A stretch of 35,199 bases of DNA. Source: a virus (taxonomy: Duplodnaviria; Caudoviricetes). The position numbers and the translations under genes were made by a program. The DNA lies in the IMG/VR virus record IMGVR_UViG_3300035548_000056, positions 1 through 35,199 of that record; one strand, given 5' to 3'. Position 1 is the stretch's first letter, and every line of letters begins with the position of its first letter. Positions 3,254 through 21,896 of the stretch are shown one piece after another. Under the pieces are notes generated by a model. It was not told the DNA's origin. It did no database searches and saw nothing but the letters and a program-made list of their open reading frames with translations.

Positions 3254-4422
3254 TGGCATTTCAAGATTTTGAACTTACAGACGATGGAGTAGCACTTTTA
3301 TCTCAAGTCCAAGCTGAGTTAGGAAGTTTAAATTTCACAAAAATGAAGATAGGTAACGGAACTTATACTGGTGATATAAAAGACTTAACAGATATAGTAA
3401 GCAGCTTTCATGAATTTGATGTGTCAAGCACAGGAGTGATGGATGATAATTCTGTCAAAGTACAAGGGACTTTTAACAACACGACTTTCGGTACATCTTA
3501 TGAGTTCAGAGAGATTGGTGTGTATGCAAAGCTAGGTGATACAGGGGCAGAAATACTATACTCTTACTCAAAAGATGAAACCCCAGACACTATTCCTGAC
3601 AGTTCTACTATATACAAAAGAACTCTCGATATAAGAAATTGTATATCAGACGTTGACACAGTCACCTTGACAGTAACAGAGATACAAGACAGATATGATT
3701 TTAATACGGTCGCAGAAATGCAAACAGCAGGTTATCTTACGGAAGGGGACAGGTGCAAAACTTGGGGATATTCTACACTAGGCGACAAGCTAGGAAATGA
3801 ATATGAGGTCGTAGCACCTTCTACAGGAACAGACGATGGATGGAACTATATAAATTTGTCAGGTTCAAGTGTCCAGGCCAAGCTATTATCAAGGGCTTTA
3901 ACTGATACAGGCTACACTGTAGATGGGTTCCTGCTAGGGAAAACAGAACTTGTATCTGATACACAATACATGGCTGGGGATGGATACTGGTGGAAACTAA
4001 AAAGTGACACAACTTCACCTTGTGTCCACGATACAACAGATACACCAGACAGCACATATTTAGAAAAAATAACGCATAAAGAAACTTTAGATAAAGTAGA
4101 AAGTTTATTTACAGTCAAAGAAATTTCCAACACTATTTACAATTCCACCGGGAATAAAACACTTTCAACTTCATTAGACAATACTATGAATTATATTTAT
4201 GTTTATGTAGGTTATGGTGCTGATAGCGATATAAAAATATGTAGGATTCCTTATGAATATAAATATAAAAGCTATTCTGTATATGGGGCTACGGCTTCTA
4301 CTAGTGAGACCGAAAGAATAGTTTTTCGTTTCATAAGTGATTCGATACTAGATATTTCTACATATGATGTAAGTGGAGCTGAACAGGTTAACATCGTAAA
4401 AATAGAACAAAGAAATATATAA
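3253..4422 (+). CDS. tail fibre protein (N-terminal tail-collar/baseplate anchor, variable tip after DKVESL)
   Basis: LT..G..L, F.KM.IG.G and FREIGVYAK....EILYSY anchor motifs; position after baseplate genes. Confidence 0.85.
   Translation: MAFQDFELTDDGVALLSQVQAELGSLNFTKMKIGNGTYTGDIKDLTDIVSSFHEFDVSSTGVMDDNSVKVQGTFNNTTFGTSYEFREIGVYAKLGDTGAEILYSYSKDETPDTIPDSSTIYKRTLDIRNCISDVDTVTLTVTEIQDRYDFNTVAEMQTAGYLTEGDRCKTWGYSTLGDKLGNEYEVVAPSTGTDDGWNYINLSGSSVQAKLLSRALTDTGYTVDGFLLGKTELVSDTQYMAGDGYWWKLKSDTTSPCVHDTTDTPDSTYLEKITHKETLDKVESLFTVKEISNTIYNSTGNKTLSTSLDNTMNYIYVYVGYGADSDIKICRIPYEYKYKSYSVYGATASTSETERIVFRFISDSILDISTYDVSGAEQVNIVKIEQRNI
4091..4108 (+). repeat. ATAAA-N8-TTTAT site (spacer GTAGAAAG, class D), inside tail fibre at DKVESL
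   Basis: ataaagtagaaagtttat. Confidence 0.8.
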
Positions 4423-4436
4423 ACTTTAAACTTTAT
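4419..4436 (+). repeat. ATAAA-N8-TTTAT site (spacer CTTTAAAC, class E) overlapping the fibre stop codon
   Basis: ataaactttaaactttat. Confidence 0.8.
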
Positions 4437-5450: not shown

Positions 5451-5467
5451 AGTAGGAGGTATTGTTT

Positions 5468-5599: not shown

Positions 5600-5628
5600 A
5601 AAAAGAGGGGCTTAGTCCTCTCTTTTTT
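5599..5628. terminator. bidirectional intrinsic terminator between convergent operons
   Basis: A-tract, gagggg...cctctc stem, T-tract. Confidence 0.8.
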
Positions 5629-5737
5629 GTAAAATACATTTTTTCAATCTGCAAACTACTATTGTTATACTTGTGTAACCGCGCCCCAGTATTTTAATTT
5701 GCGAGTTTAAACATTTATCACACTCTTTTTTTCTCAT
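5612..5737 (-). CDS. small Cys-rich hypothetical protein (41 aa, MRKKECDKC...)
   Basis: AGGTG RBS; CxxC and CxxxxC. Confidence 0.5.
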   Translation of the reverse strand: MRKKECDKCLNSQIKILGRGYTSITIVVCRLKKCILQKRED

Positions 5738-5755
5738 TCGCGCACACCTAACCTT

Positions 5756-5773
5756 ATAAAATTCTGACTTTAT
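5756..5773 (-). repeat. ATAAA-N8-TTTAT site (spacer GTCAGAAT, class B-like) right after the stop of 5774..5989
   Basis: Reverse strand ataaagtcagaattttat. Confidence 0.8.
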
Positions 5774-5989
5774 TTATAATTTTTCTAAGTCAGCTCTTTC
5801 TCTTATTAAATCTATTAACTCTTTTAATTTTTCTACTATGATCTCATCATTATTAATATCTGGATGTAAAGTACCTAAGCAACTACCCATTTTACCTTCT
5901 TTTTTATATTTCTTATAATTAAATCTAATATAAATTAAAGGTATACTAGTTCTTTTTTCAGTAAGTATATTTCTTAAAAATTTAAACAA
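5774..5989 (-). CDS. hypothetical protein (cassette cargo)
   Basis: GGAGG RBS, TTG start; bounded by two 18-bp sites. Confidence 0.7.
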   Translation of the reverse strand: MFKFLRNILTEKRTSIPLIYIRFNYKKYKKEGKMGSCLGTLHPDINNDEIIVEKLKELIDLIRERADLEKL

Positions 5990-6010
5990 TTTTCAAACCT
6001 CCATTTTCTT

Positions 6011-6028
6011 ATAAAGTCATCACTTTAT
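6011..6028 (-). repeat. ATAAA-N8-TTTAT site (spacer GTGATGAC, class A) overlapping the stop of 6025..6474
   Basis: Reverse strand ataaagtgatgactttat. Confidence 0.85.
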
Positions 6029-6474
6029 ACAATGAATAATACGCTAATAAAAGTCATAACATTCAACAATAATAAAAGGTCTCTAAGTTTAGTTAAACTT
6101 CTATTTTCATCATGTAGTAATTCATTTCGAAGCATAAAAACATCCCTACAAGCACAAACGTTTTCATACATCTCAATAACTTGCTCTTTGCTTTTTTCTG
6201 AACACTTCACATAAGATTCTTCTATTAACTCGGACGGTTCTTTTACTATACCGTGAACTTCTTCAAGTGTTTTATGAATATAGCACGACTTTCTTTTGTT
6301 ATCCTTCCTGAGATTAACATAGAGGTATTCATGATTTTTGAAGTTTTTAACTTGTGGAGTTAATACTAAGCCTTTTATATGTCTTCCATCTCTAGTCAGT
6401 CTATCAAGCGATCTAACTTGACCTTTGTCGTTTATTTGGTACAGCCCCTCATACCCAGGTATATCTTTATACAT
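6025..6474 (-). CDS. NUMOD4-domain protein, HNH part lost, hydrophobic C-terminus
   Basis: KDIPGYEGLYQIN..G.VRS NUMOD4 motif; no HNH motif after IHK. Confidence 0.75.
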   Translation of the reverse strand: MYKDIPGYEGLYQINDKGQVRSLDRLTRDGRHIKGLVLTPQVKNFKNHEYLYVNLRKDNKRKSCYIHKTLEEVHGIVKEPSELIEESYVKCSEKSKEQVIEMYENVCACRDVFMLRNELLHDENRSLTKLRDLLLLLNVMTFISVLFIV

Positions 6475-6704
6475 TTACTCCCCTCCTAGTTTATAAAAAT
6501 ACTCATCATTATCAAGCTTTACATTAAACCCATCGTTAAAAATCCACATTGAGCATACATCACGGTGACTAGATTCAACTCTTAACCACTATCACAGGCA
6601 CCACTTTATCCACAACATAAGGTCATCTAGTTCATCAAAACCAACTATACCAAAAGGATCTTTTTTTACTCTGCCATCCTCATAATACCAAGTACATTTT
6701 CCAA
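6475..6704 (-). pseudogene. probable decayed small ORF with internal TGA-TAG
   Basis: Frame LENVLGYEDG...KWCL**WLRVESS...GGE* fills the gap between neighbouring genes; upstream GGGGAG. Confidence 0.4.
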
Positions 6705-6729
6705 ACATTTTAAGCTCCCCCCCAGTTTT

Positions 6730-7188
6730 TTATAAGTATTCCACGCATCCACAAAACAACTTTTCCTCAGCTTTTCTTCTCCTAACTAGACCGTTTACAA
6801 CTTTTCCACCTGCTTTATTCCACCTTCTAAATTCTAGAGCTGCAGCTGGATAATCACCTTCTTTTAGCTTTTTAAGTAGAGTCGACTTCCTAAAAGCCGT
6901 AGAACCTATATTGTAGGTGAAAGATACAAGCGCATCAAATTGATCTTGAGATAATTTTACATCTACAACTTTATTTATTAGCGTTTGAAACCTGTTTATA
7001 TCCAATCTGAGCAATTCCTCTGCTCTTTCCACTGTGATTGTATCACCTTCTTTTACATGCCTGTGAGTGTCCTTGTAATAGGTTGTTCCAATTCCTATAG
7101 TCCAAATACCGGCACTGCATTGATAAGCTTCTAGCTTCAATCCTTCAAAATGTTTTATTAATTCAATACCTTTTTTACTTATTAACAT
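6730..7188 (-). CDS. lysozyme / endolysin, GH24 family
   Basis: FEGLKLEAYQCSAG.WTIG.G, QFDALVSF.YN.G and GLVRRR.AE motifs. Confidence 0.95.
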   Translation of the reverse strand: MLISKKGIELIKHFEGLKLEAYQCSAGIWTIGIGTTYYKDTHRHVKEGDTITVERAEELLRLDINRFQTLINKVVDVKLSQDQFDALVSFTYNIGSTAFRKSTLLKKLKEGDYPAAALEFRRWNKAGGKVVNGLVRRRKAEEKLFCGCVEYL

Positions 7189-7231
7189 TCTTCCCCCTGT
7201 TTACCACATTTTTTACAAGTCATAATCCCTC

Positions 7232-7744
7232 CTATTTTTTCGTACTGTCAAACTTACCTTCTCCACGCTCAGACTCAAAGGCTAACACTTCATCGGCTCC
7301 ACACTCTCTTATATCCATTTTAGGCACTTCTAAAAACATAACCTGAGCAATTGCTTTGCTTACTGGATAAACGATACAATCGCCTTTTTCATATACTTTT
7401 TCAACAAAGTCTGTTATATACAATATTTTTTCATTACAATTAGTAATGACAACATTCCAGATGCCTCTATAATTACTATCTATTACACCGCTACCGTATT
7501 TCATGCCTTTTATCCCAGTGCTTCCTCTCTCTTGAAATTGCGCATAATACTTTTCTGAGAAAACAGTCCTTATTCCGGTACTTAGTATTGCAGTGCTTAG
7601 CGGAGGTATAGACAACCAACCTTGGTGTTCTTCTCGGAACCATACAGGATTGACATAAAGGTCAAATCCTGCATCTCCATTTCTTTTGCTTAGAGGTTTA
7701 CACTCTTCATTCTCTCTAGAAAACAATAATTCCAACTCTTTCAT
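7232..7744 (-). CDS. dut: trimeric dUTPase
   Basis: DAGFDL, ERGS, GVIDSNYRG, IAQ and RGEG.F.ST motifs I-V. Confidence 0.93.
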   Translation of the reverse strand: MKELELLFSRENEECKPLSKRNGDAGFDLYVNPVWFREEHQGWLSIPPLSTAILSTGIRTVFSEKYYAQFQERGSTGIKGMKYGSGVIDSNYRGIWNVVITNCNEKILYITDFVEKVYEKGDCIVYPVSKAIAQVMFLEVPKMDIRECGADEVLAFESERGEGKFDSTKK

Positions 7745-7905
7745 ATTACCTCCTTGAACTTTTTACACGCCGGGCTCTCTATTGTGTTTCTTTCGTACTT
7801 CTCAGGGTGTTCATAGTAACACAATTCATAATGTAGGTAATCACAACAACATTTGCCAACTAATTTATCTGTAAGCCACATTTTTAAATCTATCCATAGT
7901 GACAT
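7741..7905 (-). CDS. small Cys-containing hypothetical protein (54 aa)
   Basis: AGGAGG RBS; stop overlaps the dUTPase ATG (ATGA). Confidence 0.65.
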   Translation of the reverse strand: MSLWIDLKMWLTDKLVGKCCCDYLHYELCYYEHPEKYERNTIESPACKKFKEVI

Positions 7906-7928
7906 TTTGTACCCTCCTATAATTTTAT

Positions 7929-7946
7929 ATAAATACCAAAATTTAT
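7929..7946 (-). repeat. ATAAA-N8-TTTAT site (spacer TTTTGGTA, class C) right after the stop at 7947
   Basis: Reverse strand ataaattttggtatttat. Confidence 0.85.
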
Positions 7947-8386
7947 TTAGATTTTTAAAGCTTCACGCACATCTTCGGCGGTATGCCCGTCAAACTCAAA
8001 TAATGCTCTTTCAGTTTTCTTACATTTAAATAAGTCCCAATCTTTAACTTTGTAGTGGTTAGATATTTGTCCAGTAGGTAACATGGCCACTACTATAAAC
8101 CATCCACCACCGAAACACTCCTCGCCATCAAAGTGTCTTAAAGACTTATGTACATTATACTTGCCTTGCTCATACCATTCATTAAACAAACAAGCATTAT
8201 ATAATTTCCTAAATTCATAAAGCTCATTAAAACTATGGTATCCATCAGATAACTCGCCACTTTCTATTTGTTTTTCAATCAGTTCTAGTTCTTTTTTTAT
8301 AATTCATAAGACTGTAAATGTAACATCATTTGTCTGTTTATTTTGAATCTTTTCCTGAGTTCGATTATAAATTCTTATCTAGTCAT
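7947..8386 (-). pseudogene. phage protein with SDGYHSFNELY...FDGH motifs, 5' end disrupted
   Basis: The conserved-looking frame extends upstream of the called start to ~8300; upstream ATGs (8307, 8386) are out of frame, and 8386 hits TAA at codon 4. Confidence 0.65.
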
Positions 8387-8502
8387 TAATCTTCCTCCGC
8401 GAGAACTATTTTCCATGCTTCTTTTAAAGTTATATCGCCATATTTACTTAATAAAATGTCTATAACGTCTAATTTATCAACTGTTGTAAATTTCTTTTTC
8501 AT
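8386..8502 (-). CDS. small hypothetical protein (38 aa, MKKKFTTVDK...)
   Basis: AAGGAG RBS immediately after an 18-bp site. Confidence 0.55.
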   Translation of the reverse strand: MKKKFTTVDKLDVIDILLSKYGDITLKEAWKIVLAEED

Positions 8503-8517
8503 AATTAACTCCTTTGG

Positions 8518-8535
8518 ATAAAGTTCTGAATTTAT
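8518..8535 (-). repeat. ATAAA-N8-TTTAT site (spacer TTCAGAAC, class B) overlapping the stop of 8532..8729
   Basis: Reverse strand ataaattcagaactttat, identical to 16182-16199. Confidence 0.9.
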
Positions 8536-8729
8536 ACAGGTATTTTTAATTCTTTGCAGATCTCTTTATAGTTCATTTCATCCATTAAAAATTTATACAA
8601 TTTAGGGTGCGTTTGCTTAAGTTTAATCATTCTGTTTTCATCGGCACCTTTATAGCAACCATACAAACAACCATAACATCCAGTTCTTTTATACCCGTGC
8701 TTTGTGTAAGCTTCGGATAAATTCATCAC
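8532..8729 (-). CDS. C-terminal fragment of a phage PAPS-reductase-like protein
   Basis: Y..GY.RTGC..C.YG......R...LK..HPK.Y motif without the N-terminal nucleotide-binding domain. Confidence 0.6.
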   Translation of the reverse strand: MMNLSEAYTKHGYKRTGCYGCLYGCYKGADENRMIKLKQTHPKLYKFLMDEMNYKEICKELKIPV

Positions 8730-9208
8730 TTTATTGTTAAATTATTTTTCACTTCAATGTGTGCCCCAGGGACTTCACGAGTATTTAACTCTTTTTTAAG
8801 TTCTACTTTGCTTATTTCATATTCTACCTTTAAAAAGTTATTAGGCACCTTGTCAGCGTCATCTATAACCACAGAAGAGGATTTCCTAAGACTAATATCC
8901 CCTATAGAGGTTTCTATTTTTTTTAGTTCCAACTTCTCCATGTTTAAAACAACATATTTTTTGAAGTTTTCGATAGCCTTTTGGCGTGCAATTCTCAAGT
9001 TTTTTAGCCTGGATTCTTCATTTTTTATAGTTTCAATGTCACTTTCAAGGTTTTTTATAACTTTTATTATCCCAGCACTTTTTTTTTCAAGTGCTTTTTC
9101 AAGTTCAACCTGAAGGGCAGACAAGGCGTCTGCATCCTCCAAAGTTTCACAACTATACATTAATTCCTCAAGTGCGTTTTCTTCATTTACGATATCATAT
9201 AATTTCAT
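8726..9208 (-). CDS. siphovirus Gp157 family protein
   Basis: MKLYDI start, coiled coil, RKSSSV.I.D...P and VPGA motifs. Confidence 0.88.
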   Translation of the reverse strand: MKLYDIVNEENALEELMYSCETLEDADALSALQVELEKALEKKSAGIIKVIKNLESDIETIKNEESRLKNLRIARQKAIENFKKYVVLNMEKLELKKIETSIGDISLRKSSSVVIDDADKVPNNFLKVEYEISKVELKKELNTREVPGAHIEVKNNLTIK

Positions 9209-9218
9209 ATTTTACCTC

Positions 9219-9581
9219 CTAAAATGGATAATCTTCTGTTGTCTCAGGTTCTTGCTGCTTCTGTGGTGCTTCCTGTGTCTTCTTACTGTCCAGGAACTCT
9301 ATCTGATCGACAATAACATCATAAGTGGTTATTTTTTTCCCCTCTACCTCGTACCGATTCATTTGAAGCCTTCCTTGTATTCCTAGTTTGCTCCCTTTCC
9401 TCATATACTCACATAAAAGCTCGGCAGTCTTTCCAAAAGCCACACAGTTTATAAAGTCCACATCGTCTTTTTTAAAAGGTCTGTCTACCGCTATTGAGAA
9501 CCTGCAGTAAGCTTTACCGCCTTGAGCATATTTTAATTCCGGGTCTCTTGTCATTCTACCTGTTAAGATTGTTAGATTCAT
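9219..9581 (-). CDS. ssb: single-stranded DNA-binding protein
   Basis: L.GR.TRDPELKY, DFINCVAFGKTAE and acidic DYPF tail. Confidence 0.96.
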   Translation of the reverse strand: MNLTILTGRMTRDPELKYAQGGKAYCRFSIAVDRPFKKDDVDFINCVAFGKTAELLCEYMRKGSKLGIQGRLQMNRYEVEGKKITTYDVIVDQIEFLDSKKTQEAPQKQQEPETTEDYPF

Positions 9582-10105
9582 TTTTTTACCTCCATATATA
9601 TTTTTTTAAGATCTTCTAACGACTTGTTTTTTAAAGTTTCTTTTGTATATTCATCGGTTAGTTTTATTATACTTCCAACCGCTGCATCTATTCTCTTATT
9701 CTCCTCTATAACGTGTTGTATATCTTCTCCGGTATAAAAACTCAAACCTATACCAAACATGGCTATATTCTTAGCCAAGCACCTCACGATTGCATCTCCT
9801 ATCTGCCGGCTATTTGGGTTAGGAACTGCCTTAAATTTATTGTCCATAACAGGGAGGAACATTTTTTTAGTTAGCCCAAATGCAGTGACTGAGGTTTTAA
9901 CAAAATGACTCTCCCCTCTGCTAAAACAAGGGAAACCATTTTCATCCTCTAGAACTTCATAAGTGGCAGTTACGTCTTGTTCAAGTAGCAACTTATAAGC
10001 GTTGGCCCAGCTGATATATTTTATTCCTTGGTAATTTTTTTCTGTGACTTTTAGAGTTTCCTCTAAGTTATAATTTTTAATAAATATTTCTTTACTGAAT
10101 TTCAT
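9578..10105 (-). CDS. single-strand annealing protein, Sak3/DUF1071 family
   Basis: Y.SWA.A, LPVMD and RCLAKNIAMFG.GL..Y.GED motifs; adjacent to ssb. Confidence 0.88.
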   Translation of the reverse strand: MKFSKEIFIKNYNLEETLKVTEKNYQGIKYISWANAYKLLLEQDVTATYEVLEDENGFPCFSRGESHFVKTSVTAFGLTKKMFLPVMDNKFKAVPNPNSRQIGDAIVRCLAKNIAMFGIGLSFYTGEDIQHVIEENKRIDAAVGSIIKLTDEYTKETLKNKSLEDLKKIYMEVKK

Positions 10106-10359
10106 TATTCACCCTCCTCAAAACTTATAGTCTCCCAGCAGGAAGCTTTTATTTTACTTTTTATTTCTACTTTTTTATATTCTTTCGTAAGTTTCTGTGC
10201 GTATCTAATGGCGTCATGTATTTCTCTGAATCCCTTCACTTCTTTTCTGACTGTAAACTTTTCGCCATCTATTATTTCATCTTCACATATAACCCCCACC
10301 TTAAAGTTGCAAGGCGGGGTTAAAAAGTCGGTCGTAATTACTGGATTATTCATCTTCAT
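10105..10359 (-). CDS. hypothetical protein
   Basis: Translationally coupled on both sides. Confidence 0.65.
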   Translation of the reverse strand: MKMNNPVITTDFLTPPCNFKVGVICEDEIIDGEKFTVRKEVKGFREIHDAIRYAQKLTKEYKKVEIKSKIKASCWETISFEEGE

Positions 10360-10643
10360 TCCGAGTACTCCTGGCTTGTGACTTCTTTATGTATTTTCTC
10401 AATCTGGTATTTTTCAAGTTCATATAGTTCGTCCTCTGTCCACCTAAAAGAGTGATCCAGTATATCAGAAACTAGGTTTTCAAAAGTATTTTTAACGTCT
10501 ATCTCCCAGGTTAAGCCGTAACCTTCAAGTTCGTTTACACTCTGTCCACATATACATTGATATTGCCTTTCGTAAGGTTCAGTATAACCATCTCCCCACC
10601 TTCTAGTTACTACCATATCTTTACCGCATAGATTACATATCAT
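10356..10643 (-). CDS. hypothetical zinc-ribbon protein (start MICNLCG)
   Basis: GGAGGGG RBS before the internal ATG; CxxC and CxC. Confidence 0.65.
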   Translation of the reverse strand: MICNLCGKDMVVTRRWGDGYTEPYERQYQCICGQSVNELEGYGLTWEIDVKNTFENLVSDILDHSFRWTEDELYELEKYQIEKIHKEVTSQEYSE

Positions 10644-10721
10644 TTTAACCCCTCCAAATAAAACCACTATTATTGCCATTGTTACCATTTCGAGTACCTG
10701 ATCTTTGTTTTCAGAAGGTGT

Positions 10722-10841
10722 TTAATTAGTTTTATCAACTTCATTCCTCCATTCACAAAAGTCTTTTACTGTTATTTTTTCTAATTCTAACCCTAATCTT
10801 TTTAAGTTTTTAACAATCGTGTTTAGTTGTGAAAGCTTCAT
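10722..10841 (-). CDS. small hypothetical protein (39 aa)
   Basis: AAGGAGG RBS, MKLSQLN... Confidence 0.55.
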   Translation of the reverse strand: MKLSQLNTIVKNLKRLGLELEKITVKDFCEWRNEVDKTN

Positions 10842-10855
10842 ATTAATCCTCCTTT

Positions 10856-10875
10856 GAGGCCCCGAAGGGCCTTTT
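10856..10875. terminator. hairpin / probable terminator
   Basis: aggccc-cgaa-gggcct followed by Ts. Confidence 0.55.
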
Positions 10876-10877
10876 AT

Positions 10878-11027
10878 TTATTTTACTGCATCTCTTATAA
10901 TCTCATCAAAAGCAATCTGCGATAATTCAGCTTTGCAAGAATCCATTGCTACACTGTAACCGAATCTTTTAATCGTCTTTCTTATAGTTTCTTTTCTTTT
11001 TTCAATTTCTTGTCTCGTAAATTTCAT
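10878..11027 (-). CDS. small hypothetical protein (49 aa), first gene of the leftward operon
   Basis: GGGAG RBS, MKFTRQEIE... Confidence 0.6.
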   Translation of the reverse strand: MKFTRQEIEKRKETIRKTIKRFGYSVAMDSCKAELSQIAFDEIIRDAVK

Positions 11028-11068
11028 TTTTCACTCACTCCCTTTTCGTGTTGCCCTTTGATACTTAG

Positions 11069-11165
11069 ATATTACTTTATTTTTTAAACTATGTCAACAC
11101 TTTTTATAATTGAATTATAATTAAATATTTTTAACTTGTATTTATATAAAAAAGTATGTTATACT
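11069..11165. promoter_or_regulatory. divergent sigma70-type promoters with a palindromic operator candidate
   Basis: Minus strand TTGACA-17-TAATAT (11097-11069); plus strand TTGTAT-18-TATACT with extended TG (11136-11165); TTATAATT-G-AATTATAA at 11104-11120. Confidence 0.7.
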
Positions 11166-11184
11166 TAAAATATAGAAAAAGGAG

Positions 11185-11376
11185 ATGAGAAAAATGGAAC
11201 ACCTAAATGAAATGTTATTCAGAATAAAGTATGAGATGAAGCAAAAGAATATAACTATCAAACAAGTGGCTAAAGAGTTGGGTTATACTCAAGCCACTAT
11301 AAGTAACTTACTAAACGGAAACTCCGGAACTTTTGACACATTAAAAAAAATTTTGAAATATTTAGAGACTAAATAA
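11185..11376 (+). CDS. Cro/XRE-like HTH regulator
   Basis: IT.KQVAKELGYTQATISNLLNG. Confidence 0.9.
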   Translation: MRKMEHLNEMLFRIKYEMKQKNITIKQVAKELGYTQATISNLLNGNSGTFDTLKKILKYLETK

Positions 11377-11414
11377 AGGAGGTTGCATAAATATAAAATT
11401 AAAGGGGATGTAAT

Positions 11415-14120
11415 ATGGCTTTTTGCAAAAGTTTAGCTGACAATTTGATCAAAAACGGTTTGCAGCCTTTTATTTTTAGGTCTAGTAATAAAAAAGGACA
11501 ATATAATAATAAGTATTTTAAAAATGAAAAATTAACTTTAGGCAATACTAGGGAAATACTGGATTATATGGAGTTTTTCAACATTACAGATGATTCAAAC
11601 GTAGGTATTTTTTTAAAAAATACTAAAATAAGGGATGCTAATAAAGGATTTTTCTTTTTAGATTTTGATTTAAAAGGGAATGACGACATGTCTGTGTTTG
11701 ATGATATAGTCAAAGATTTGAAAATCTATGGATATTGGGAGCAGGTTGAAAAAAAGAGGAATGGTAAAGGCTATCACCTTTGTTTGAAAACATCATTAAA
11801 AGATATGGAACTCTTGGAGGCCCAAGGCAAAATATACAGAGGTGAGAGTTCTTTTGTTGAGGTGTTAACAGCTGGGAAGTTTTTGAGGTTATGCCCTAAC
11901 CAAGATTACATAATAGACGATACAGAAGGAAAACATATTATTTTTGAAAATGTAAAGACTATAAAAATTGATGAATTGTTAAGCCTTTCAAAGAACAACA
12001 ACGCCGATAAAATATTGAAAAGAAGTTCTACCAAAAAAACTAAACACATAGTAAAGGCTGACATAGATTTTTCTAAAATAAAAAACAGCACAGAGTTCGT
12101 ACAGCCTGAAAAAACTTTAGTTTGCAACTATATACTTTCTAAAAAAATGGAATATGACGAGGCACTGCAAATGACTTGCGGGCTTGGTGCACTTCAATGG
12201 TTTGATGTTTTTAAGAGTAGTATACCCAATGAAAAAATTGGTGAATATATTGGACTGTTTGAAAAGAGCATTAAAGAAAAACCTTATAAAACTAATTATA
12301 TGAAAAGCTTATTAAATGCTCTGGAAGATTCAAAGTATAAAAAAATCATAACCGGAAACTATTTAGATGTGGAACAAGTGAAGGAGATTTTTAATTCAGA
12401 TAATAAAAAACATCTTGTTGTTTCACCTACTGGTACAGGTAAAACTCATGCTTTCTTAAATGCTGCAAAAGAACTAAAAGAAAAAATAATTTTTACAGTT
12501 CCTAACGTAGCAGTAGCTCATCAATTTGGTAGCAAGTATGACTTTATAAAAGTTTCACACTCAAATATATCGTTTGAAAAAGCCATACATTCAGGTGACA
12601 TAATAGTTTGCACAATTGACAAGCTAGCTAATTGTCCTGAGCATATTGATTTAGAGAACCATATAATCATAAATGATGAAAAACACTCGCATGTTACAAG
12701 TGCTGATTTTAGAACCAAAGCGGTTCACTTTTCAAATAAAGTAAGCAAAAGAGCAAAAAAAATTATAGATATAACAGCTACACCAGAGCCATTATATATG
12801 GGTGACTATGATAAAAAAACATTATTTTGTAAGAAGGATGAAAAAAAGTATGATGTTAATGTATATTCGACTAAAAAAGTTACTAAAACAGTTTTAAAGC
12901 TACTAAAAGAAACAGAAGGGCAAAAAAGAATTGTTTTGAATAACAATATCGCTTTTAACGAAACATATGCAAGTACCAATCAAAATTATATTTCTTTAGA
13001 TTCAACTAAAAAGAAAAGCGACGTTTATAATTATCTTGTGAATAATAACAAAATACCTGAGAGTGTAGAAACTGTGTTGACAACTGATTTATTCAGTGCA
13101 GGTCTGAATATCAACAATGATGGAGAATGGCATGTTATAATAGCTGGTTTTAAAGACCCTGCGACTATTAGACAGTTTGTAGCCAGATTTAGAAATGTGA
13201 AAAATATAAAGGTTTCAATAATTATATCCAGAAATGACGTAAAAGAAATAGATCTTGAAAGTTACACAGATTTTTTATTTTTAGTTAATGAGAAACGAAT
13301 GAAAGAACTAAATAAAAATACAATGACGGCAGTGGTGAAGGAAAAAGGAATACTTCAGGATGATTGTTTTATACTTTCTGAAGACAGTGGAAATTACGAA
13401 ATGGTTCATGATAAAATATTAAATGATTCGTGGAAGTATTTTGTGAAACACATATCACCTTATGACTTGATGATGTGCTTTGATGATGACTCCTATACGT
13501 TGAATGTTGAATATTTAGATGAAGAGGAATATGAAAACGAAATTCTCGAGAATATAAAGGAAACTCGGGAACAAAGGAAAAACATAAAAGTTTCAAAGAA
13601 ATACAAAACTATTGAAGCTTTGGAAGTATATCAGGACCTTTGCTATATATTCAAAGACGATAAAGATTATGATAATGAAATACTAGACAAATATTTGAAA
13701 TTGAGTAACGAATACAAACTACCGCATTCGGTTGTTATGAAATTTTGTGAAAATAAAGATTTTGATTATGAAGTAAGATTTAGAACTATGGCATATTTTT
13801 TACAAAAGAAGGGGTCAGATGAAATATTGCGTAAAAACAAAATATATAAAATAACAAAGTATGTATATAACATAAGAAAAGGCAGTATTTTAAATATCAC
13901 AGACTTGGCAAACGACAAAAAATTCAAGAGGTTGGATTTGAAAAGATGCTTTGATAGTTTGTGGGAATATGAAGAAATAAGAGATAAAAATAAAAGGAAT
14001 ATAAAATTATTATCTAGAAAAAACAAAAAATTATTCAGTATGAAAGAGTTTAAAATATTGCTTTCTACAGGGTATATTTTAGATAAAAAAACAGCTAATA
14101 TTTTACAACTGCAATTTTAA
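11415..14120 (+). CDS. primase-polymerase-like domain fused to an SF2 (origin-binding type) helicase
   Basis: N-terminal FLDFD and GKGYHL (AEP motifs); SPTGTGKT, NDEKH, TATP, AGLNI and Q..ARFR. Confidence 0.8.
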   Translation: MAFCKSLADNLIKNGLQPFIFRSSNKKGQYNNKYFKNEKLTLGNTREILDYMEFFNITDDSNVGIFLKNTKIRDANKGFFFLDFDLKGNDDMSVFDDIVKDLKIYGYWEQVEKKRNGKGYHLCLKTSLKDMELLEAQGKIYRGESSFVEVLTAGKFLRLCPNQDYIIDDTEGKHIIFENVKTIKIDELLSLSKNNNADKILKRSSTKKTKHIVKADIDFSKIKNSTEFVQPEKTLVCNYILSKKMEYDEALQMTCGLGALQWFDVFKSSIPNEKIGEYIGLFEKSIKEKPYKTNYMKSLLNALEDSKYKKIITGNYLDVEQVKEIFNSDNKKHLVVSPTGTGKTHAFLNAAKELKEKIIFTVPNVAVAHQFGSKYDFIKVSHSNISFEKAIHSGDIIVCTIDKLANCPEHIDLENHIIINDEKHSHVTSADFRTKAVHFSNKVSKRAKKIIDITATPEPLYMGDYDKKTLFCKKDEKKYDVNVYSTKKVTKTVLKLLKETEGQKRIVLNNNIAFNETYASTNQNYISLDSTKKKSDVYNYLVNNNKIPESVETVLTTDLFSAGLNINNDGEWHVIIAGFKDPATIRQFVARFRNVKNIKVSIIISRNDVKEIDLESYTDFLFLVNEKRMKELNKNTMTAVVKEKGILQDDCFILSEDSGNYEMVHDKILNDSWKYFVKHISPYDLMMCFDDDSYTLNVEYLDEEEYENEILENIKETREQRKNIKVSKKYKTIEALEVYQDLCYIFKDDKDYDNEILDKYLKLSNEYKLPHSVVMKFCENKDFDYEVRFRTMAYFLQKKGSDEILRKNKIYKITKYVYNIRKGSILNITDLANDKKFKRLDLKRCFDSLWEYEEIRDKNKRNIKLLSRKNKKLFSMKEFKILLSTGYILDKKTANILQLQF

Positions 14121-14184
14121 ATTTTTTTATGGGAAATGAATTCAATTGTGGGTGTCTATTTTATTAGCTTTGACGCAAAAAAAA

Positions 14185-14235
14185 GATGACAAAAAGTGCT
14201 CTATATTTTATAAAAATAACGTTTTTTTTGTCATC
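14185..14235. repeat. 11-bp inverted repeat with AT-rich spacer
   Basis: gatgacaaaaa ... tttttgtcatc. Confidence 0.7.
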
Positions 14236-14251
14236 AAAAAGGGTGTGAAAA

Positions 14252-14542
14252 ATGATAGTGAAAATTAAATTTTTAAGAGAAGAATTAAGCGAATATTTAA
14301 GACTAAATCCAGAAGAAAAAACTCGTATTCATGAAAGAATAAAAGAAATATCAAAAAGGGTGTCTACTTATGAACATTTATCGCCCGGGGATGATTTTTA
14401 CTGCGGAGTACACATGTTAAAAAAAGCAATAAATAAAGATTTTGACGAGTGCTTATTTTACACACTTGAAAAAATAACTGAAGTTGGTAATCCAAAAGTA
14501 AAATTGGTGAGTTATATTGTAATGCCGTTTATATGTATGTAA
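14252..14542 (+). CDS. hypothetical protein
   Basis: ORF with RBS in the rightward operon. Confidence 0.6.
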   Translation: MIVKIKFLREELSEYLRLNPEEKTRIHERIKEISKRVSTYEHLSPGDDFYCGVHMLKKAINKDFDECLFYTLEKITEVGNPKVKLVSYIVMPFICM

Positions 14543-14551
14543 GGAGGTAGC

Positions 14552-14830
14552 ATGTATAAAACTCAAACCTTAGACGAGCTAAAAGACTTATACAAGGTAG
14601 AATTAAAAAAATACAATGCACAGGAAAAGTGGATTGAAGCTAACCCAAACAAGGCACATAAAATTATTAAAGGTAAGATTCCATTTAAGATGTTTTTAGA
14701 AACTCTAAGCAACTTAGGACAAATAGGTTATGAAATGGAAGATAGATTCAACTATATACAATCTACAGAAGAAAGGTTCGGGGAACTTGGACCTTTTCAG
14801 AAAGAAGTAATTGAGAGGTTAGGATTATGA
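14552..14830 (+). CDS. hypothetical protein
   Basis: AAGGAGG RBS. Confidence 0.7.
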   Translation: MYKTQTLDELKDLYKVELKKYNAQEKWIEANPNKAHKIIKGKIPFKMFLETLSNLGQIGYEMEDRFNYIQSTEERFGELGPFQKEVIERLGL

Positions 14831-15162
14831 AAATCATAAAAGGCACAGTCCTAAAAGATATAGCTATTTTTAATCATCAACGTAAAATAGTATCATGGAC
14901 AAAAGAAGAAGCCAAACTACCAGCCAAAACTTTTATGATAGAAGGTTACTGTCATATATTTGAGGATAAAATAGACTTCAAAGATCTGTATAAAATGTAT
15001 GGCTATAAACCTCCTGAGAAGCTCACAAAACAAAATAAATATGATATCCTAGCACTTACAAGGGATAGACATCAAGAAGGCACATTAAACCACACATACT
15101 GGAACTACTTCTGTGAAAAGTTTATGCCGTCACATTTAAAAAACCAAATAAAATTATTCTAA
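14827..15162 (+). CDS. hypothetical protein
   Basis: ATGA coupling to the upstream gene. Confidence 0.65.
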   Translation: MKIIKGTVLKDIAIFNHQRKIVSWTKEEAKLPAKTFMIEGYCHIFEDKIDFKDLYKMYGYKPPEKLTKQNKYDILALTRDRHQEGTLNHTYWNYFCEKFMPSHLKNQIKLF

Positions 15163-15174
15163 CAAGGAGCAATT

Positions 15175-15924
15175 ATGGAAAAAATTGTAAATGAAGTATT
15201 TAAAAATGTAAATGACCGTGAATACCGTGTATTGTCCTATGAAGGTAAAGAAAAGAAAGGTAAAGCATATAAGCACTTTTATAAAATACAGTTCCTCGAC
15301 ACTAAAAACGAGTATCTGGAAGAGCGAACCAAGGTCAGGACGTCAAAATGCAAAGACTTGCTGCACATCAAACTTATGAAGTCTAAAATTAAACAACAAA
15401 AGCTAAAAGAACGTGCAAGAGTTACGAAACGTGATAAGAACACTCTAAAACGCTTTGATTTTGATTTTAAGACCATTCTGTCACTCGACCTAAGTACAAA
15501 GTCGTCCGGCTGGTGTGTAGGCTCTAAAACGTGTATAAAGGCTTTTGGTTGCATATCACAAGATAGCAATAATTGGAGAGAAAGAAACTATAATACAATA
15601 GTTGAAATTGAAAAAATAATAAACACCTACAAGGTGGACATAGTATTTATAGAGGCAACCTTCCTTGGTTTATCCAGTTCCGTACTTGAGAAACTATGTG
15701 AGTTACGAGGTGGGGTATTTAAACTTATTATGGAGTATAACTGTGAATATGAAGTAATAATGCCTAATACCTGGAAACATTACCACAATTTAGGTGTAGG
15801 AAGACAAGAGCAGAAGGCGGCTAGTGTAAAAAAAGCTAGTTCAATCTTAAAAAGTAAAGTAAATGATGATGTAGCGGACAGTTGTTTGTTGTATATATAC
15901 GCAGTAAAAAATCTAATAAAGTGA
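15175..15924 (+). CDS. RuvC-like Holliday junction resolvase with N-terminal extension
   Basis: ILSLDLSTKSSGW, DIVFIE, P.TWK and DDVADS acidic motifs. Confidence 0.85.
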   Translation: MEKIVNEVFKNVNDREYRVLSYEGKEKKGKAYKHFYKIQFLDTKNEYLEERTKVRTSKCKDLLHIKLMKSKIKQQKLKERARVTKRDKNTLKRFDFDFKTILSLDLSTKSSGWCVGSKTCIKAFGCISQDSNNWRERNYNTIVEIEKIINTYKVDIVFIEATFLGLSSSVLEKLCELRGGVFKLIMEYNCEYEVIMPNTWKHYHNLGVGRQEQKAASVKKASSILKSKVNDDVADSCLLYIYAVKNLIK

Positions 15925-15933
15925 TGAATTTAT
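15916..15933 (+). repeat. ATAAA-N8-TTTAT site (spacer GTGATGAA, class A) containing the resolvase stop
   Basis: ataaagtgatgaatttat; 17/18 identical to the 6011 site. Confidence 0.85.
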
Positions 15934-15951
15934 TTAGAAAAGAGGTCATGT

Positions 15952-16185
15952 ATGAAACATACAATTAAGTTGATTAATAATTATAAAGAAATTTTAGAAA
16001 AAAATTATTCAGATGAACCAGAGTTGCTAGATAAGTACTTAAAACAATATAAATCATTAGAAAACATTGAGGTAGAAGTTGATAGTAAAAATATTTTTGG
16101 AGTTTTTAATGAACTATTTGAAATTAACGGTTATGAAAAACAGGTTTTCTGCACAGATTATTTTAAACTTTTAAAATCTAAATAA
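15952..16185 (+). CDS. hypothetical protein (cassette cargo)
   Basis: GAGG RBS; bounded by two 18-bp sites. Confidence 0.7.
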   Translation: MKHTIKLINNYKEILEKNYSDEPELLDKYLKQYKSLENIEVEVDSKNIFGVFNELFEINGYEKQVFCTDYFKLLKSK

Positions 16186-16199
16186 ATTCAGAACTTTAT
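16182..16199 (+). repeat. ATAAA-N8-TTTAT site (spacer TTCAGAAC, class B) overlapping a stop codon
   Basis: ataaattcagaactttat. Confidence 0.9.
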
Positions 16200-16232
16200 T
16201 GGGTTATATAAATAAAAATATTGGAGGCAAAT

Positions 16233-16640
16233 GTGAATATTATAAAAATAAAAGAATTGAAAGATCAGAAATATGATGAAAATTATGTTGCGATAGATGG
16301 TAAAGATATGGTCATCGAAATAGACGATCTCGGAGAAGAAATTTATTGGATTTAAAAAGAAGGTGAGATTGAAGATCTAAAAGTTCATCCAACTAGAAAA
16401 GAAGTGTTTTCTTTAGATGCTGATTCAATAGTAGAAAACTTTTACGATAGTGGTGTTATATTTGAAGATTGTGAATTTCCAAGAAATCGTACAAAAGAAT
16501 TACAGGAGCTTTTAGATAAATGGTGTGAAGAGGTTAAAGGAGAAGTAGATGTTTGTTACGAGATTTATTACGAAACTCTTATAGATGTATCTGAAATTAT
16601 CGAGGAAGTAAAAAGGAAAATCGAGGATGAAACCAGATAA
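16233..16640 (+). pseudogene. 135-codon acidic hypothetical ORF with one in-frame TAA (16353-16355)
   Basis: GGAGG RBS + GTG 16233 is in frame with ORF 16404..16640, with a single stop between them. Confidence 0.7.
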
Positions 16641-16654
16641 ATTTTGGAATTTAT
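16637..16654 (+). repeat. ATAAA-N8-TTTAT site (spacer TTTTGGAA, class C) overlapping a stop codon
   Basis: ataaattttggaatttat; 17/18 identical to the 7929 site. Confidence 0.85.
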
Positions 16655-16680
16655 AAGTAATTATGAGGGGGATTGCATAA

Positions 16681-16923
16681 ATGCGGGAAATAAAATTTAA
16701 GGCGTGGGATGATGACGATAAAAAAATGCTAGAAGCTCAGGATTTGACACAGAATTCTGAATATTGGAAGTGGCTTGGTAAAAAAGATGTAAAACTATTA
16801 CAATTCACAGGTAAGAAGGATTCAAAAGGTGTAGAAATCTACGAAGGCGACATAATACAGTCTGTAAATGGACTGAAATATGTAATTTATTACAACAAAA
16901 ACAGTGCAGCTTTTGATGCCTAA
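16681..16923 (+). CDS. YopX family protein, probably C-terminally truncated
   Basis: MREIKFKAWD and QFTG.KD.KG.EIYEGDI; lacks the usual EVIGN ending. Confidence 0.85.
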   Translation: MREIKFKAWDDDDKKMLEAQDLTQNSEYWKWLGKKDVKLLQFTGKKDSKGVEIYEGDIIQSVNGLKYVIYYNKNSAAFDA

Positions 16924-16952
16924 TGTATTAAAAGAATATAATTTGATAATTG

Positions 16953-19564: not shown

Positions 19565-21351
19565 TGGCTTATGACGATCAGTCGGAAGAAGTAAACGGAT
19601 TATTAAATGAAGATGGGACAGTGACTACATATAGCGGGGAGGTGGTGGACTTGTCAGCGGCAACAGAAGAATATAAAAGGCGATTGCCACGAGTAAATAA
19701 ATTTTTAAACCCTGATGGTAGCGTGTCTACGTTTGGAGATGTGAGTGGTGTTAATTTCAAGCTAGACACAGGGTATGAAGACGGGGGGCTGTTGTTAGGG
19801 GTGACTCAAATAACATCAACAGAGATTGTATATTTGGCTGGAGATGGTGTGCATTATAAGCTCATAACTGGTACAACGGTTCCTTACACGCATGACGGGA
19901 CAGATGCTCCGAATATGACATATTTTGAAGAAGTTAGCTACAAGACGACTTCGGATAAATTAGAGAATTTACAAGAAGTTGTATTTAATACCGATAAGGT
20001 TTATGGTGTTGAGTTTAGTGGTAGTGACCCAGTCGGCACTAGAATATTAGATGCAATAGATATGGTAGCAGAGGTCGGGCTTGACGATTCTACAGTTACA
20101 AATGATTTTGATAGCGTGAGTTTTTTTGACAGACCTATTTGCTGTGGAACTCATGACTCAGATGGCAACTTCACAGTTAATGCCTACAAAGGGGATCCCG
20201 ACTTTGCAAGTGACGGAAGTAATGGAGAGGTGTTTTATGAATGTGCGCCTTTCTATTGGAATGAAAGTTACGACAGACCATGTGTAACTGCTAGTGCTAG
20301 AAGCGGATTCAAGCTTGCTCCAATGTTTAAAAATGATAAAAACAAGGTATATCTCCCTGTGTACTGGTTGTCAATGGTGGATGGAGTTGCGACTTCTAGA
20401 AGTGGGACATTTGGCACTTATAATTCAGTTAACAGGCATATGACTAATGCAAGAACTTACAACGCAACTAACGCACATATCGAGACTATGAAAGTGAGAA
20501 TATCTGAATATGTCTTGCAGTTAGTGGAGTTTGCCACAAAAGACTTTCAGACTGTCATGATGGGTGCTAGTTCTATGGCTTACAGTGATTTGCATGTGGC
20601 TACAGTTGCTGAAACTTCTGCAAATAGAATAATAATAAGTAACGCTTATTCGGGACAATTCGTGGTAGGGCAGACGATAGCTATAGGAAGTTCTCGTGGT
20701 TCAAATTCAGTCGCATCAGACAGGTTAATAACTTCTATAGACACTTATGATACTGAAAACGACGCTATCACATTCGACGGGGATGCCGTAGATATAACTG
20801 CAGGCGACGTAGTAAGCTCGCGACCATGGGTGAACGGTGCCCTGGATGTAGTCGAGGCTTCAAGTGGTTCAATAGGTTCTAATACTAGCGGGAAATATCC
20901 TTGCATTTGGAGAGGGAAGGTTGATCCATGGGGAGATGCCTTTTCCGGCTTATGTGATGTGCTTATTCAGAGAAATGGAACTGGAAGTGGCGAAGACCCT
21001 TACACTTACAGGCCTTATATCTTAGAAGACCCTAGGCTGTACTCTGGTGGGACTATAACAGGTGATTATATAGAACTTAATTACGACACTGCTCAGTCTG
21101 ACGGGTATGCAAAGACTCTAGGGAAAGACTCGAGATACCCTTATGCGTCGTTGACGAGTGAGGTCGGCGCGGCCAGCACTACTTATCTTAGTGGATATTA
21201 TTATTATCCTAGGTATGACGTGAGCGTGGTTTTTGCCGGCGGTGTCTGGTACAGCGGCCGGTTTTGTTCTCCGGTGTTCTTCGTCCTGTACGATTCCCCG
21301 TCTAGCTCGCAAATCAACCGTCTTGCCCGCCTTTTTGTTACCCGGGCTTAA
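19561..21351 (+). CDS. second fibre / receptor-binding protein with C-terminal CLec-type (DGR-target-like) domain
   Basis: Shares a ~69-aa domain with the tail fibre; WRG...PWG and terminal AGG.W..G..C...F......S......ARL motif. Confidence 0.8.
   Translation: MMAYDDQSEEVNGLLNEDGTVTTYSGEVVDLSAATEEYKRRLPRVNKFLNPDGSVSTFGDVSGVNFKLDTGYEDGGLLLGVTQITSTEIVYLAGDGVHYKLITGTTVPYTHDGTDAPNMTYFEEVSYKTTSDKLENLQEVVFNTDKVYGVEFSGSDPVGTRILDAIDMVAEVGLDDSTVTNDFDSVSFFDRPICCGTHDSDGNFTVNAYKGDPDFASDGSNGEVFYECAPFYWNESYDRPCVTASARSGFKLAPMFKNDKNKVYLPVYWLSMVDGVATSRSGTFGTYNSVNRHMTNARTYNATNAHIETMKVRISEYVLQLVEFATKDFQTVMMGASSMAYSDLHVATVAETSANRIIISNAYSGQFVVGQTIAIGSSRGSNSVASDRLITSIDTYDTENDAITFDGDAVDITAGDVVSSRPWVNGALDVVEASSGSIGSNTSGKYPCIWRGKVDPWGDAFSGLCDVLIQRNGTGSGEDPYTYRPYILEDPRLYSGGTITGDYIELNYDTAQSDGYAKTLGKDSRYPYASLTSEVGAASTTYLSGYYYYPRYDVSVVFAGGVWYSGRFCSPVFFVLYDSPSSSQINRLARLFVTRA
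19955..19972 (+). repeat. ATAAA-N8-TTTA(C) site (spacer TTAGAGAA, class D) at DKLENL
   Basis: ataaattagagaatttac; same protein position as the 4091 site. Confidence 0.7.
21226..21351 (+). other. DGR variable-region-like segment
   Basis: Only 10 A in 114 nt (21226-21339); scaffold codons are A-free and interspersed with NNC/NNT codons. Confidence 0.75.
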
Positions 21352-21377
21352 GGGGGTTTGGGGGAACCTTCCCCCAA
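21352..21377 (+). other. GC-rich hairpin directly after the VR (DGR target-recognition type)
   Basis: gggggt-ttgggggaa-cc-ttcccccaa, with no following U-tract. Confidence 0.7.
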
Positions 21378-21431
21378 TGGAATTTTGAATAAATAAACAT
21401 AAAATAAAAAAACTTAAAGAGGTGATAAGGA

Positions 21432-21758
21432 ATGAAAGCAGAAAGCACGATTATGCCCGCATCTCCATATGAGATAACGTTCAATGGAGACTACGCAGAA
21501 ATTGAATTTTTTACAAATATTACTGAATCGGAGGTGGAAGAGGGCGAGGCCGCCAAATGGGAGTATGACCACTACAGGTATACTACTAGATACAGAGACA
21601 CGTTAATAACAAGTTTAGATAACAATTACGACAGTTGGCTAGAAAAAGCTATAGAAAAAGAAGAAGCTGAAAACACTGTTGAAGAAACCGAGGCAGAGAA
21701 GATAGAAGAGTTGGAAAGTGCACTTGAAATACTTATTTTAGGCAGCTTGGAGGTGTAA
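21432..21758 (+). CDS. putative fibre chaperone (XkdW-like position)
   Basis: Acidic 108 aa with C-terminal T.AEKI.ELE.AL helix; lies between the fibre and an XkdX-like gene. Confidence 0.6.
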   Translation: MKAESTIMPASPYEITFNGDYAEIEFFTNITESEVEEGEAAKWEYDHYRYTTRYRDTLITSLDNNYDSWLEKAIEKEEAENTVEETEAEKIEELESALEILILGSLEV

Positions 21759-21759
21759 T

Positions 21760-21882
21760 ATGTACTCGATTTTGAAAAAAATGTATGTAGCAGGTAAATT
21801 GACAGAAACAGGGCTAGACAATGCTATTGCAAAAGGATGGATAACAGAGGTGGAAAAAGAAGAGATACTTGCCTCCTTATAA
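21760..21882 (+). CDS. XkdX-like small protein (40 aa)
   Basis: GGAGG RBS; MYSILKKMYVAGKLT...A.AKGWITE.E.EEI. Confidence 0.75.
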   Translation: MYSILKKMYVAGKLTETGLDNAIAKGWITEVEKEEILASL

Positions 21883-21896
21883 ATTCTAAAATTTAT
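21879..21896 (+). repeat. ATAAA-N8-TTTAT site (spacer TTCTAAAA, class E) overlapping the XkdX-like stop
   Basis: ataaattctaaaatttat. Confidence 0.8.

Follow-up and report, generated by a model that had tools for sequence, protein, structure and literature searches.

In engineered cassette exchange with heterospecific lox or FRT sites, sites with unlike centres flank a cargo, and the flanks are kept when the cargo is replaced. Integron cassette arrays are built from an integrase with its attI site and one folding attC per cassette. Here we describe a family of 18-bp sites in the virus record IMGVR_UViG_3300035548_000056 (Duplodnaviria; Caudoviricetes), the whole stretch of which, 35,199 nucleotides, was analysed and is called the window. 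The sites have constant arms around one of a few 6-bp centres; they bound small accessory genes in the two early operons and variable parts of two tail genes. On balance, and judging from sequence, we favour the reading that they mark differences in gene content and are likely the crossover sites of an external tyrosine recombinase, most likely one of a 331-aa (amino acid) family. The observation is real, and the sites probably are a working recombination-site system.

Natural systems with comparable features have been described. The dif modules of Acinetobacter Rep_3/OrfX plasmids lie between two-armed XerC/XerD sites with a 6-bp centre, which cut the accessory genes into modules. Rearrangement occurs between identical or nearly identical centres with the enzyme in trans, movement is proposed via cointegrates, and the system is stated to be found uniquely in Acinetobacter (excerpts of PMC13141974). 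The Rin shufflon of Bifidobacterium prophages uses rix, an asymmetric 11-bp repeat, at one locus beside the invertase (excerpts of PMC6109161). Phage mosaicism is usually ascribed to illegitimate or relaxed homologous recombination, because most junctions show no boundary sequences, and the boundary-sequence model holds that short conserved gene-end sequences mark module junctions (excerpts of PMC3029335). In the full-text literature searched, which covers few subscription papers, class-coded sites of phage early operons were not described, nor was this site reported for Fusobacteriota.

Anatomy and classes of the 18-bp site

The motif ATAAA-N8-TTTAT is present 11 times in the window at spacing 8, and not once at spacings 0-7 and 9-11. 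The expected number from 200 local dinucleotide shuffles was 0.545 on average, with a maximum of 4, which refutes chance as the origin of the motif itself. Among the 5-mer arm and spacing pairs of the genome, ATAAA/TTTAT at spacing 8 ranked first (Poisson p 8.5e-10). Together with a copy at 19955 that has one arm mismatch, there are twelve sites in the window, of 18 bp each. A degenerate copy at 8201 was dropped as a site because it lies inside a broken gene. We also rejected a stretch beside some tail sites, which we took to be loxP-like, since its arm spacing was 12 and not 8.

We compiled 39 sites from the window and five other records. They have the frame ATAAA-N-T-xxxx-A-N-TTTAT in common, and their arms are mirror images (ATAAA-N and N-TTTAT) around a 6-bp centre. 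Two inverted arms around a centre of 6-8 bp are the general layout of a tyrosine-recombinase site. Position 2 of the 8-mer spacer was T in 39/39 sites and position 7 was A in 38/39; these two are almost fixed, and positions 1 and 8 differ even among sites of one class, so that the central 6 bp define the class. The centres are TGATGA (class A), TCAGAA (B), TTTGGA (C), TAGAAA (D), TAGAGA (D'), TTTAAA (E) and TCTAAA (E'), the letters D, D', E and E' being labels assigned in this analysis. Each class keeps a single orientation relative to transcription. A purine run lies within 10 nt downstream in 13 of the 39 sites.

The two early operons of the window diverge from about 11.1 kb. Their sites overlap stop codons, and sites were not located at the divergent promoter-like hexamers near 11069-11121. 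In the right operon (+ strand), a class A site (TGA-TGA, 15916..15933) overlaps the stop of a RuvC-like gene. The A-B cargo that follows is a 77-aa open reading frame (ORF; 15952..16185) without a family match, and its stop falls within the left arm of a class B site (TCA-GAA, 16182..16199). The B-C cargo comprises 135 codons (16233..16640) and had been listed as a gene in a preliminary description of this DNA; we found a TAA in frame at 16353-16355. The class C site (TTT-GGA) is at 16637..16654.

In the left operon (- strand), the order is A (8717..8734), a 65-aa ORF, B (8518..8535) and C (7929..7946, the variant TTT-GGT), and then A (6011..6028) and B (5756..5773). The A site at 8717 overlaps the start of the 65-aa ORF as well as the stop of a Gam-like gene. 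This first A-B cargo (8532..8729) is the C-terminal piece of a PAPS-reductase-like protein. The B-C cargo (7947..8502), which had been described as two genes, consists in fact of a 38-aa ORF and a broken gene's 3' part. At 8297-8302, 73 letters replace 4 in two relatives; after 7962 there are 15 extra letters in all four of the public runs used below. The second A site follows an HNH-like ORF, and the cargo between it and the last B is a 71-aa ORF (5774..5989) with no family match. The endolysin gene sits between A 8717 and A 6011.

The seven sites of the preliminary description were confirmed in position, spacer and orientation, and so was the identity of 16-18 out of 18 bases between paired sites. 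It had overlooked A 8717, so the left operon also holds a full A-B-C run, and the A-B-C order proposed for both early operons was borne out more fully than claimed. The slots are three A-B and two B-C, rather than two of each. The little similarity described for the flanks does not hold throughout: those upstream of C 7929 and B 16182 align over 35 nt at 80%. The sites at 4091, 4419, 19955 and 21879, in and after two tail genes, had also been missed.

The A sites 8717 and 15916 are identical (18/18) and face in opposite directions around the divergent promoters and the replication genes. An inversion of the central 7.2 kb between them would swap the downstream cargo between the operons with all genes still sense; no read evidence for this inversion was seen. 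Several early genes of the window appear truncated or interrupted, namely 6025-6474 (HNH), 8532-8729 (PAPS reductase), 16233-16640 (the B-C gene), 16681-16923 (YopX-like) and 18697-19062 (DUF6996), and the majority of them adjoin a site.

The four tail sites are all on the + strand. The class D site (TAG-AAA, 4091..4108) is in frame within a tail fibre gene (3253-4422) and reads DKVESL. The D-E module (4109..4418, +) is the variable C-terminal part of the fibre, and the class E site (TTT-AAA, 4419..4436) is on the stop of this gene. The class D' site (TAG-AGA, 19955..19972), the one with the arm mismatch, is in frame in a 596-aa tail-like gene and reads DKLENL. Its D'-E' module (19973..21878, +) consists of the 596-aa gene's C-terminal portion and a 108-aa ORF, and is followed by the class E' site (TCT-AAA, 21879..21896). 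D 4091 and D' 19955 occupy paralogous positions in the two tail proteins, which match at 45% over the 80 residues ending at the site. PHROG matches to the 596-aa protein start at residue 131, and no solved-structure match was found for it.

Breakpoints, site order and the host

We compared the window with contigs of four public runs (X13, X16, X19 and X24) over positions 3000-17400 only, with D' and E' lying outside this range. A joint of 4108-4419, from the end of D to the start of E, was observed in X19, and the X24 record ends at 4108. In X13 there was a joint of 8536-8717, from B to A. Further joints were 8695-8717, 15933-16944 (from the end of A) and 5769-5850, an 80-nt joint beginning at 5769, in class B site 5756, in both X16 and X19. 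The end at 8717 belongs to a joint in X13 and X19 and is loose in X16. Relatives in X13, X16 and X19 cease aligning at 15933, and the 77-aa ORF after it has scant or zero cover in the four runs. At one loose end, the main fibre bears the D' variant. Six of the 28 distinct joint ends fell on the 10 strict sites (p 2e-6; 15 of 19 joints), in comparison to 3/28 that lie no more than 10 nt from one of 20 stops without a site, drawn from the ORF list.

The same was seen in more distant comparisons. The two prophages of the genome G108 match at 92% over 3,275 bp, up to a point 5 nt beyond A, and their homology resumes at the first base of B; the cargo in between is unrelated (921 versus 161 nt). The window and the unrelated phage G002 have 144 bp in common at 97.9%, ending at site B (8517), which are the last 144 nt of the 65-aa ORF cargo with B. 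The sequence of G006, a close relative, comes to match the window 9 nt ahead of class C site 16637. Relatives carry different cargo within one site pair, which supports the swapping between matched sites that had been proposed. Since the arms are shared, the breakpoints resolve to the 18-bp site and not to the base; to this resolution, exchange products have their breakpoints at the site, as in a tyrosine-recombinase system.

The classes recur in other phages. G002, a phage fragment of 63 kb that has a DnaE-like polymerase gene of its own, carries A-B, A-B-C and a lone B, and G004 is near-identical to it. The provirus G009 has a B-C pair and a tail with D-E and D'-E'. The two G108 prophages carry A-(B/A fused)-B-A-B and A-B, with D/E-type sites in their tails. 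Counting early-operon neighbours within 700 nt (n=14; G002's lone B and the C of G006 are without a neighbour and do not enter the count), we found 8 A-B, 4 B-C, 1 A-A and 1 B-A. As 12 of 14 being A-B or B-C was reached in 0/100,000 label permutations, the order of adjacent classes is non-random in other phages too. A strict A-B-C order held mostly; it failed at one B-A step and one fused B/A junction in G108. At this junction (G108:C1, about 63,169-63,197), the left arm and centre of B are fused directly to the centre and right arm of A.

Two further elements of the preliminary description were not supported as stated. Unlike spacers were thought to prevent deletion; like-class direct repeats are present on the same strand (A 8717/6011 and B 8518/5756 in the window, A-B-A-B in G108), and therefore deletion is not generally blocked. 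A fixed flanking pair for like cargo had been put forward as a check; the YopX-like gene is located after C in the window and between B and C in G002 (by eye).

From 58 class-B and 38 class-C viral matches, we kept G002/G004, G009 and G006, on the strength of a second site or of homology to the window. A class-A scan of genome contigs yielded 65 single matches, which we read as chance, with no second A, B or C site nearby. Queries of viral contigs with the RuvC-like and SSB proteins found only distant loci as relatives, and a primase alignment search gave weak, unrelated matches in metagenomes and viruses and none in genomes. G006 (16.9 kb, found by site pattern) is without window 17100-19040 (a Dam-like methylase and the DUF6996 fragment) and 19640-21961 (the D'-E' block), with ends not at sites, and its large terminase differs from that of the window. 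In G113:C17 (L298:1490-1530), a B-class site lies inside an apparent spacer of a CRISPR-like array that adjoins a small tyrosine recombinase gene. In G113:C37:72,561-73,077 (L311:12561-13077), a B site and a further class (TAAAAA) are found at the left edge of a small phage-like chromosomal element.

The window represents a circular tailed phage of 35.07 kb with a terminal overlap of 127 nt, and has baseplate, head, lysis and replication genes. We infer a host among the Fusobacteriaceae, because a primase homolog (39%) is labelled so and the site classes recur in prophages of the phylum of Leptotrichia G007. The runs containing window DNA carry the labels oil field, shale gas, gas well, rock and freshwater, and no RNA dataset is listed as containing it. 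An imperfect inverted repeat of 57 nt surrounds an AT-rich stretch at 17384-17568, 3' of a DnaD-like gene, and is possibly a replication origin.

Candidate enzymes, the host repeat and competing explanations

Besides its integrase, G009 encodes a 331-aa PF00589 protein (L304:17848-18840), 1 kb downstream of C in its B-C pair. This family is present in 39/190 Fusobacteriota genomes at E <= 1e-30 and mostly adjoins tail-fibre-like genes (30 loci, judged from ORF starts). The protein retains R-K-HxxR-H-Y, which we take to be the catalytic set of tyrosine recombinases. Among its nearest homologs (50-55%) are entries of Bacillaceae, Paenibacillus and Clostridium, and its best structure matches are weak ones to Xer-like/XerA chains. 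In the 30 loci around the family, TAAA.T-N4-A.TTTA was counted 25 times, compared with 0-7 at other spacings. Upstream of the gene, in-frame xLENL sites are followed by short ORF pieces that run in either orientation, and we counted 38 D-type motifs in 16/19 regions (0.56 versus 0.065 per kb). A stretch of 596 bp (99.8%) is inverted between G051a and G051c, each of its ends lying on a D-type site, and 10/17 inverted matches end on such a site. These observations establish D-type sites as real inversion points beside the 331-aa family.

Shufflons beside the 331-aa recombinase were also noted in G051:C1 near 800,800, 915,600 and 1,387,000, with about nine pieces in G051b. The named phage Funu1 (KR131710.1, 34,773-37,748) has a shufflon layout that is annotated just as 'integrase' and hypothetical proteins. 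A 116-kb phage, G005 (IMGVR_UViG_3300037502_002145; L067, L387), contains 23 copies of ATAAA-N8-TTTAT (control 1), all with different centres, and encodes a 339-aa tyrosine recombinase that is a tree neighbour of the 331-aa family on a long branch.

The motif is also found in host chromosomes. It is enriched in 6/190 genomes (53/5, 33/10, 36/5, 86/8, 70/6 and 21/4 versus reversed-pattern controls). In G107 and G108, most of the copies retrieved form the two ends, facing inwards, of a non-coding repeat of 360-590 bp, with hairpins adjoining each end and about 40 nt conserved outside each site. The repeat was seen in G107, G108, G110 and G111 (e.g. L415:2536-3018), where it is multicopy with a modular interior, and DNA matches to it are present in 18/190 genomes. 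Six loci gave no Rfam match, and the loci examined held no autonomous copy. The left end of the repeat and an A site of G002 match in 26/30 bases. At 2/2 orthologous loci (G107, G110, G111), the outer flanks are kept and the whole interior between the sites differs. The empty loci, in G108 (both) and G109 (one), are without the element and the 40 or so nt outside each site, and have no palindrome. Since the interior is replaced and the empty place is palindrome-free, the sites are internal exchange points of the host element, not its insertion target.

When the centres are split 3+3, the inner halves of a module are reverse complements. D (AAA) faces E (TTT) in 3/3 modules, one E having three arm mismatches, and D' (AGA) faces E' (TCT) in 4/4, giving 7/7 tail modules. 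In the same way, the TGA of A pairs with the TCA of B, and the host element has TGA/TCA ends in 28 pairs, which were selected on that feature. The evidence therein comes from three or four module types that are independent, and does not amount to seven events. By analogy with dif modules, which contribute an arm, this suggests that modules here contribute an arm and half a centre, and 'unlike' module ends would then be able to start exchange. The unlike pairs A/B, D/E and D'/E', being inverted half-matches, may thus not be inert.

Tyrosine recombinases need matching centres. In the mechanism that we propose, a recombinase tetramer would synapse two sites whose centres match. Within one cell, two genomes would be joined at one class of site and resolved at the following one, by which the gene or fibre tip in between would be exchanged. 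The centre would serve as an address common to different phages of one host group. Like-class repeats could delete or invert, and selection would remove the products that lose essential genes, e.g. the endolysin. A wider proposal, in which the mobile DNA of one host clade shares such an address code, with slots (A-B, B-C, D-E, D'-E' and the host repeat) set by a few 6-bp centres, read as inverted half-centres, and served in trans, through common arms, by the shufflon-derived recombinase of some prophages, is a tentative one that we would not yet bet on.

Several observations weigh against a 331-aa enzyme acting at the sites. Among the 51 ORFs scanned in the window, there is no tyrosine or serine recombinase, nor is there a PF00589 match; the earlier view of tyrosine-recombinase sites is supported for class D, as inversion points beside such an enzyme. 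Neither the fragment G002 nor G113 yielded a member of the 331-aa family, the search of G108 gave just a 27% match to an Xer-like gene, and among the six site-rich host genomes only G107 has the family at E <= 1e-30. In 20 regions beside the family, the 30 kb upstream gave no motif peak (15 versus 6-26). In Lysinibacillus phage LC76P1, which has a 47% homolog, ATAAA-N8-TTTAT is absent from 90 kb of accessory DNA, and neither this DNA nor 50 kb of structural genes, out of 165 kb in all, shows a palindrome peak de novo. Two prophage tails, of G110 and G107:C1, are without D/E sites, and the D sites may be common by descent of the fibre gene. Moreover, 22/28 joint ends are not on sites, the half-centres of B-C ends match in just 2 of 3 bases, the D-type motif was drawn after seeing the same regions in which it was counted, and the outside records, each found through one class pattern, are not independent.

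A different explanation takes the sites for conserved boundary sequences, perhaps left over from a recombinase system, which phage annealing proteins use as short homologies. The window encodes a Sak-like single-strand annealing protein (9578..10105, - strand) and no recombinase, and G108 has a RecT-like one. Like would pair with like simply from the 16-18 bp match, and breakpoints at site edges are predicted as well; the other breakpoints that we observed, at a terminator and at site-less gene ends, fit this too. However, annealing leaves unexplained the two-fold symmetry, the constant arms across classes with different centres, the inverted half-centre pairing, the precise D inversion beside a recombinase and the identical arms on the host repeat. 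We consider it rather unlikely, with classes A, B and C as those to which it could still apply. It is less probable still that the same site-specific mechanism is run by a chromosomal tyrosine recombinase of the host, which would make the modules phage counterparts of dif modules. A host enzyme was kept in play because the 331-aa family is missing, at the above threshold, from five of the six site-rich genomes; the hosts hold several other tyrosine recombinases, including one of 235 aa in 11/61 genomes (G107, G108, G110 and G111 among them). This protein, however, was not found in G113 or G114 and covers just four of the six, and the D-type inversions adjoin the phage enzyme and not a host one. 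The near-universal 324-aa host recombinase cannot explain the motif, because it is in 58/61 genomes and the motif is enriched in so few. The GGAC/GTCC-type motif beside its gene looks unlike the phage site arms, and no dif matching the phage sites was found beside the host Xer (20 loci, by eye). This GGAC/GTCC-type motif recurs in many of these loci (L512-L527) and is a candidate chromosomal dif; the literature searched gave no paper on a dif of this host group.

As for a role in regulation, the sites could be operators or roadblocks for a DNA-binding protein such as MrpR of SPbeta, a recombinase-fold repressor with repeated sites (excerpts of PMC10516654), and a palindrome at fixed spacing would suit a dimeric binder. 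MrpR peaks lie in promoter regions (same excerpts), whereas our sites are at stops or at in-frame tail positions. An operator role fits poorly because of this placement, as the preliminary description had also argued from the spacers, nor would it lead one to expect centre classes with an orientation, inversions or an exchange of cargo at the site; we regard it as improbable. In AT-rich DNA, chance combined with selection for ribosome-binding sites, for stop codons and for their overlap with starts (TGATG) could account for the TAA in the arms, the TGA-TGA and ATG in class A and the purine runs. It does not account for the peak at a single spacing, the identical centres in unrelated genomes or the in-frame tail copies, and its probability is negligible.

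Comparison with known systems

If the wider proposal above is correct, the sites would constitute a natural multi-address cassette exchange across phage families and the host chromosome. Unrelated phages without a recombinase would trade accessory genes and fibre tips slot for slot, and the same chemistry would reshuffle a host element. The junctions here bear a defined, class-coded site common to unrelated phages, with a candidate enzyme whose catalytic residues are intact, and one site family links tail-fibre shufflons, accessory-gene turnover and a host repeat. For use in cassette exchange, the 331-aa candidate may provide a recombinase with several orthogonal sites of natural origin.

As in the lox/FRT systems, cargo between unlike centres is replaced and the flanks are kept. 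Unlike those, the present system is natural, has a 6-bp centre, has unlike ends that are inverted half-matches, and contains like-class repeats in one genome. An integron array differs in that the window has no integrase and its modules lie between two different 18-bp sites. The boundary-sequence model, as excerpted, needs homology alone and predicts no symmetry, shared arms or inversion. With respect to MrpR and its SPBRE sites, the sites here occur at stops and inside genes, and the candidate enzyme keeps the catalytic set, which the MrpR type, in the excerpts, is without.

The Rin shufflon is similar in that a tyrosine recombinase is tied to tail genes and an in-frame crossover joins a constant N-terminus to variable tips. 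Sites 4091 and 19955 lie in this way in frame between constant and variable parts, with a joint at 4108. The D-site loci of Fusobacteriota are Rin-like as far as the excerpts describe Rin, with an invertase beside tail genes and inverted tips in G051a/c. The window differs in having neither an invertase nor silent tips in inverse orientation; two unlike sites in direct order enclose its tips, and its sites reach into the early operons.

With dif modules, again as excerpted, our system has in common modules between two-armed sites, a 6-bp centre and an enzyme that we propose to be supplied in trans. However, the arms here are symmetric rather than separate XerC and XerD arms, and it is the centre that gives a site its polarity. 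Every site is oriented along transcription, and a few fixed centres are used in fixed order. The ends of dif modules are inversely oriented; here the arm and the inner 3 bp are inverted for A-B, D-E, D'-E' and the host element, and for B-C in 2/3 bases. The carriers are tailed phages and a host repeat rather than Rep_3/OrfX plasmids. The system therefore works like dif modules and Rin, and is a member of neither.

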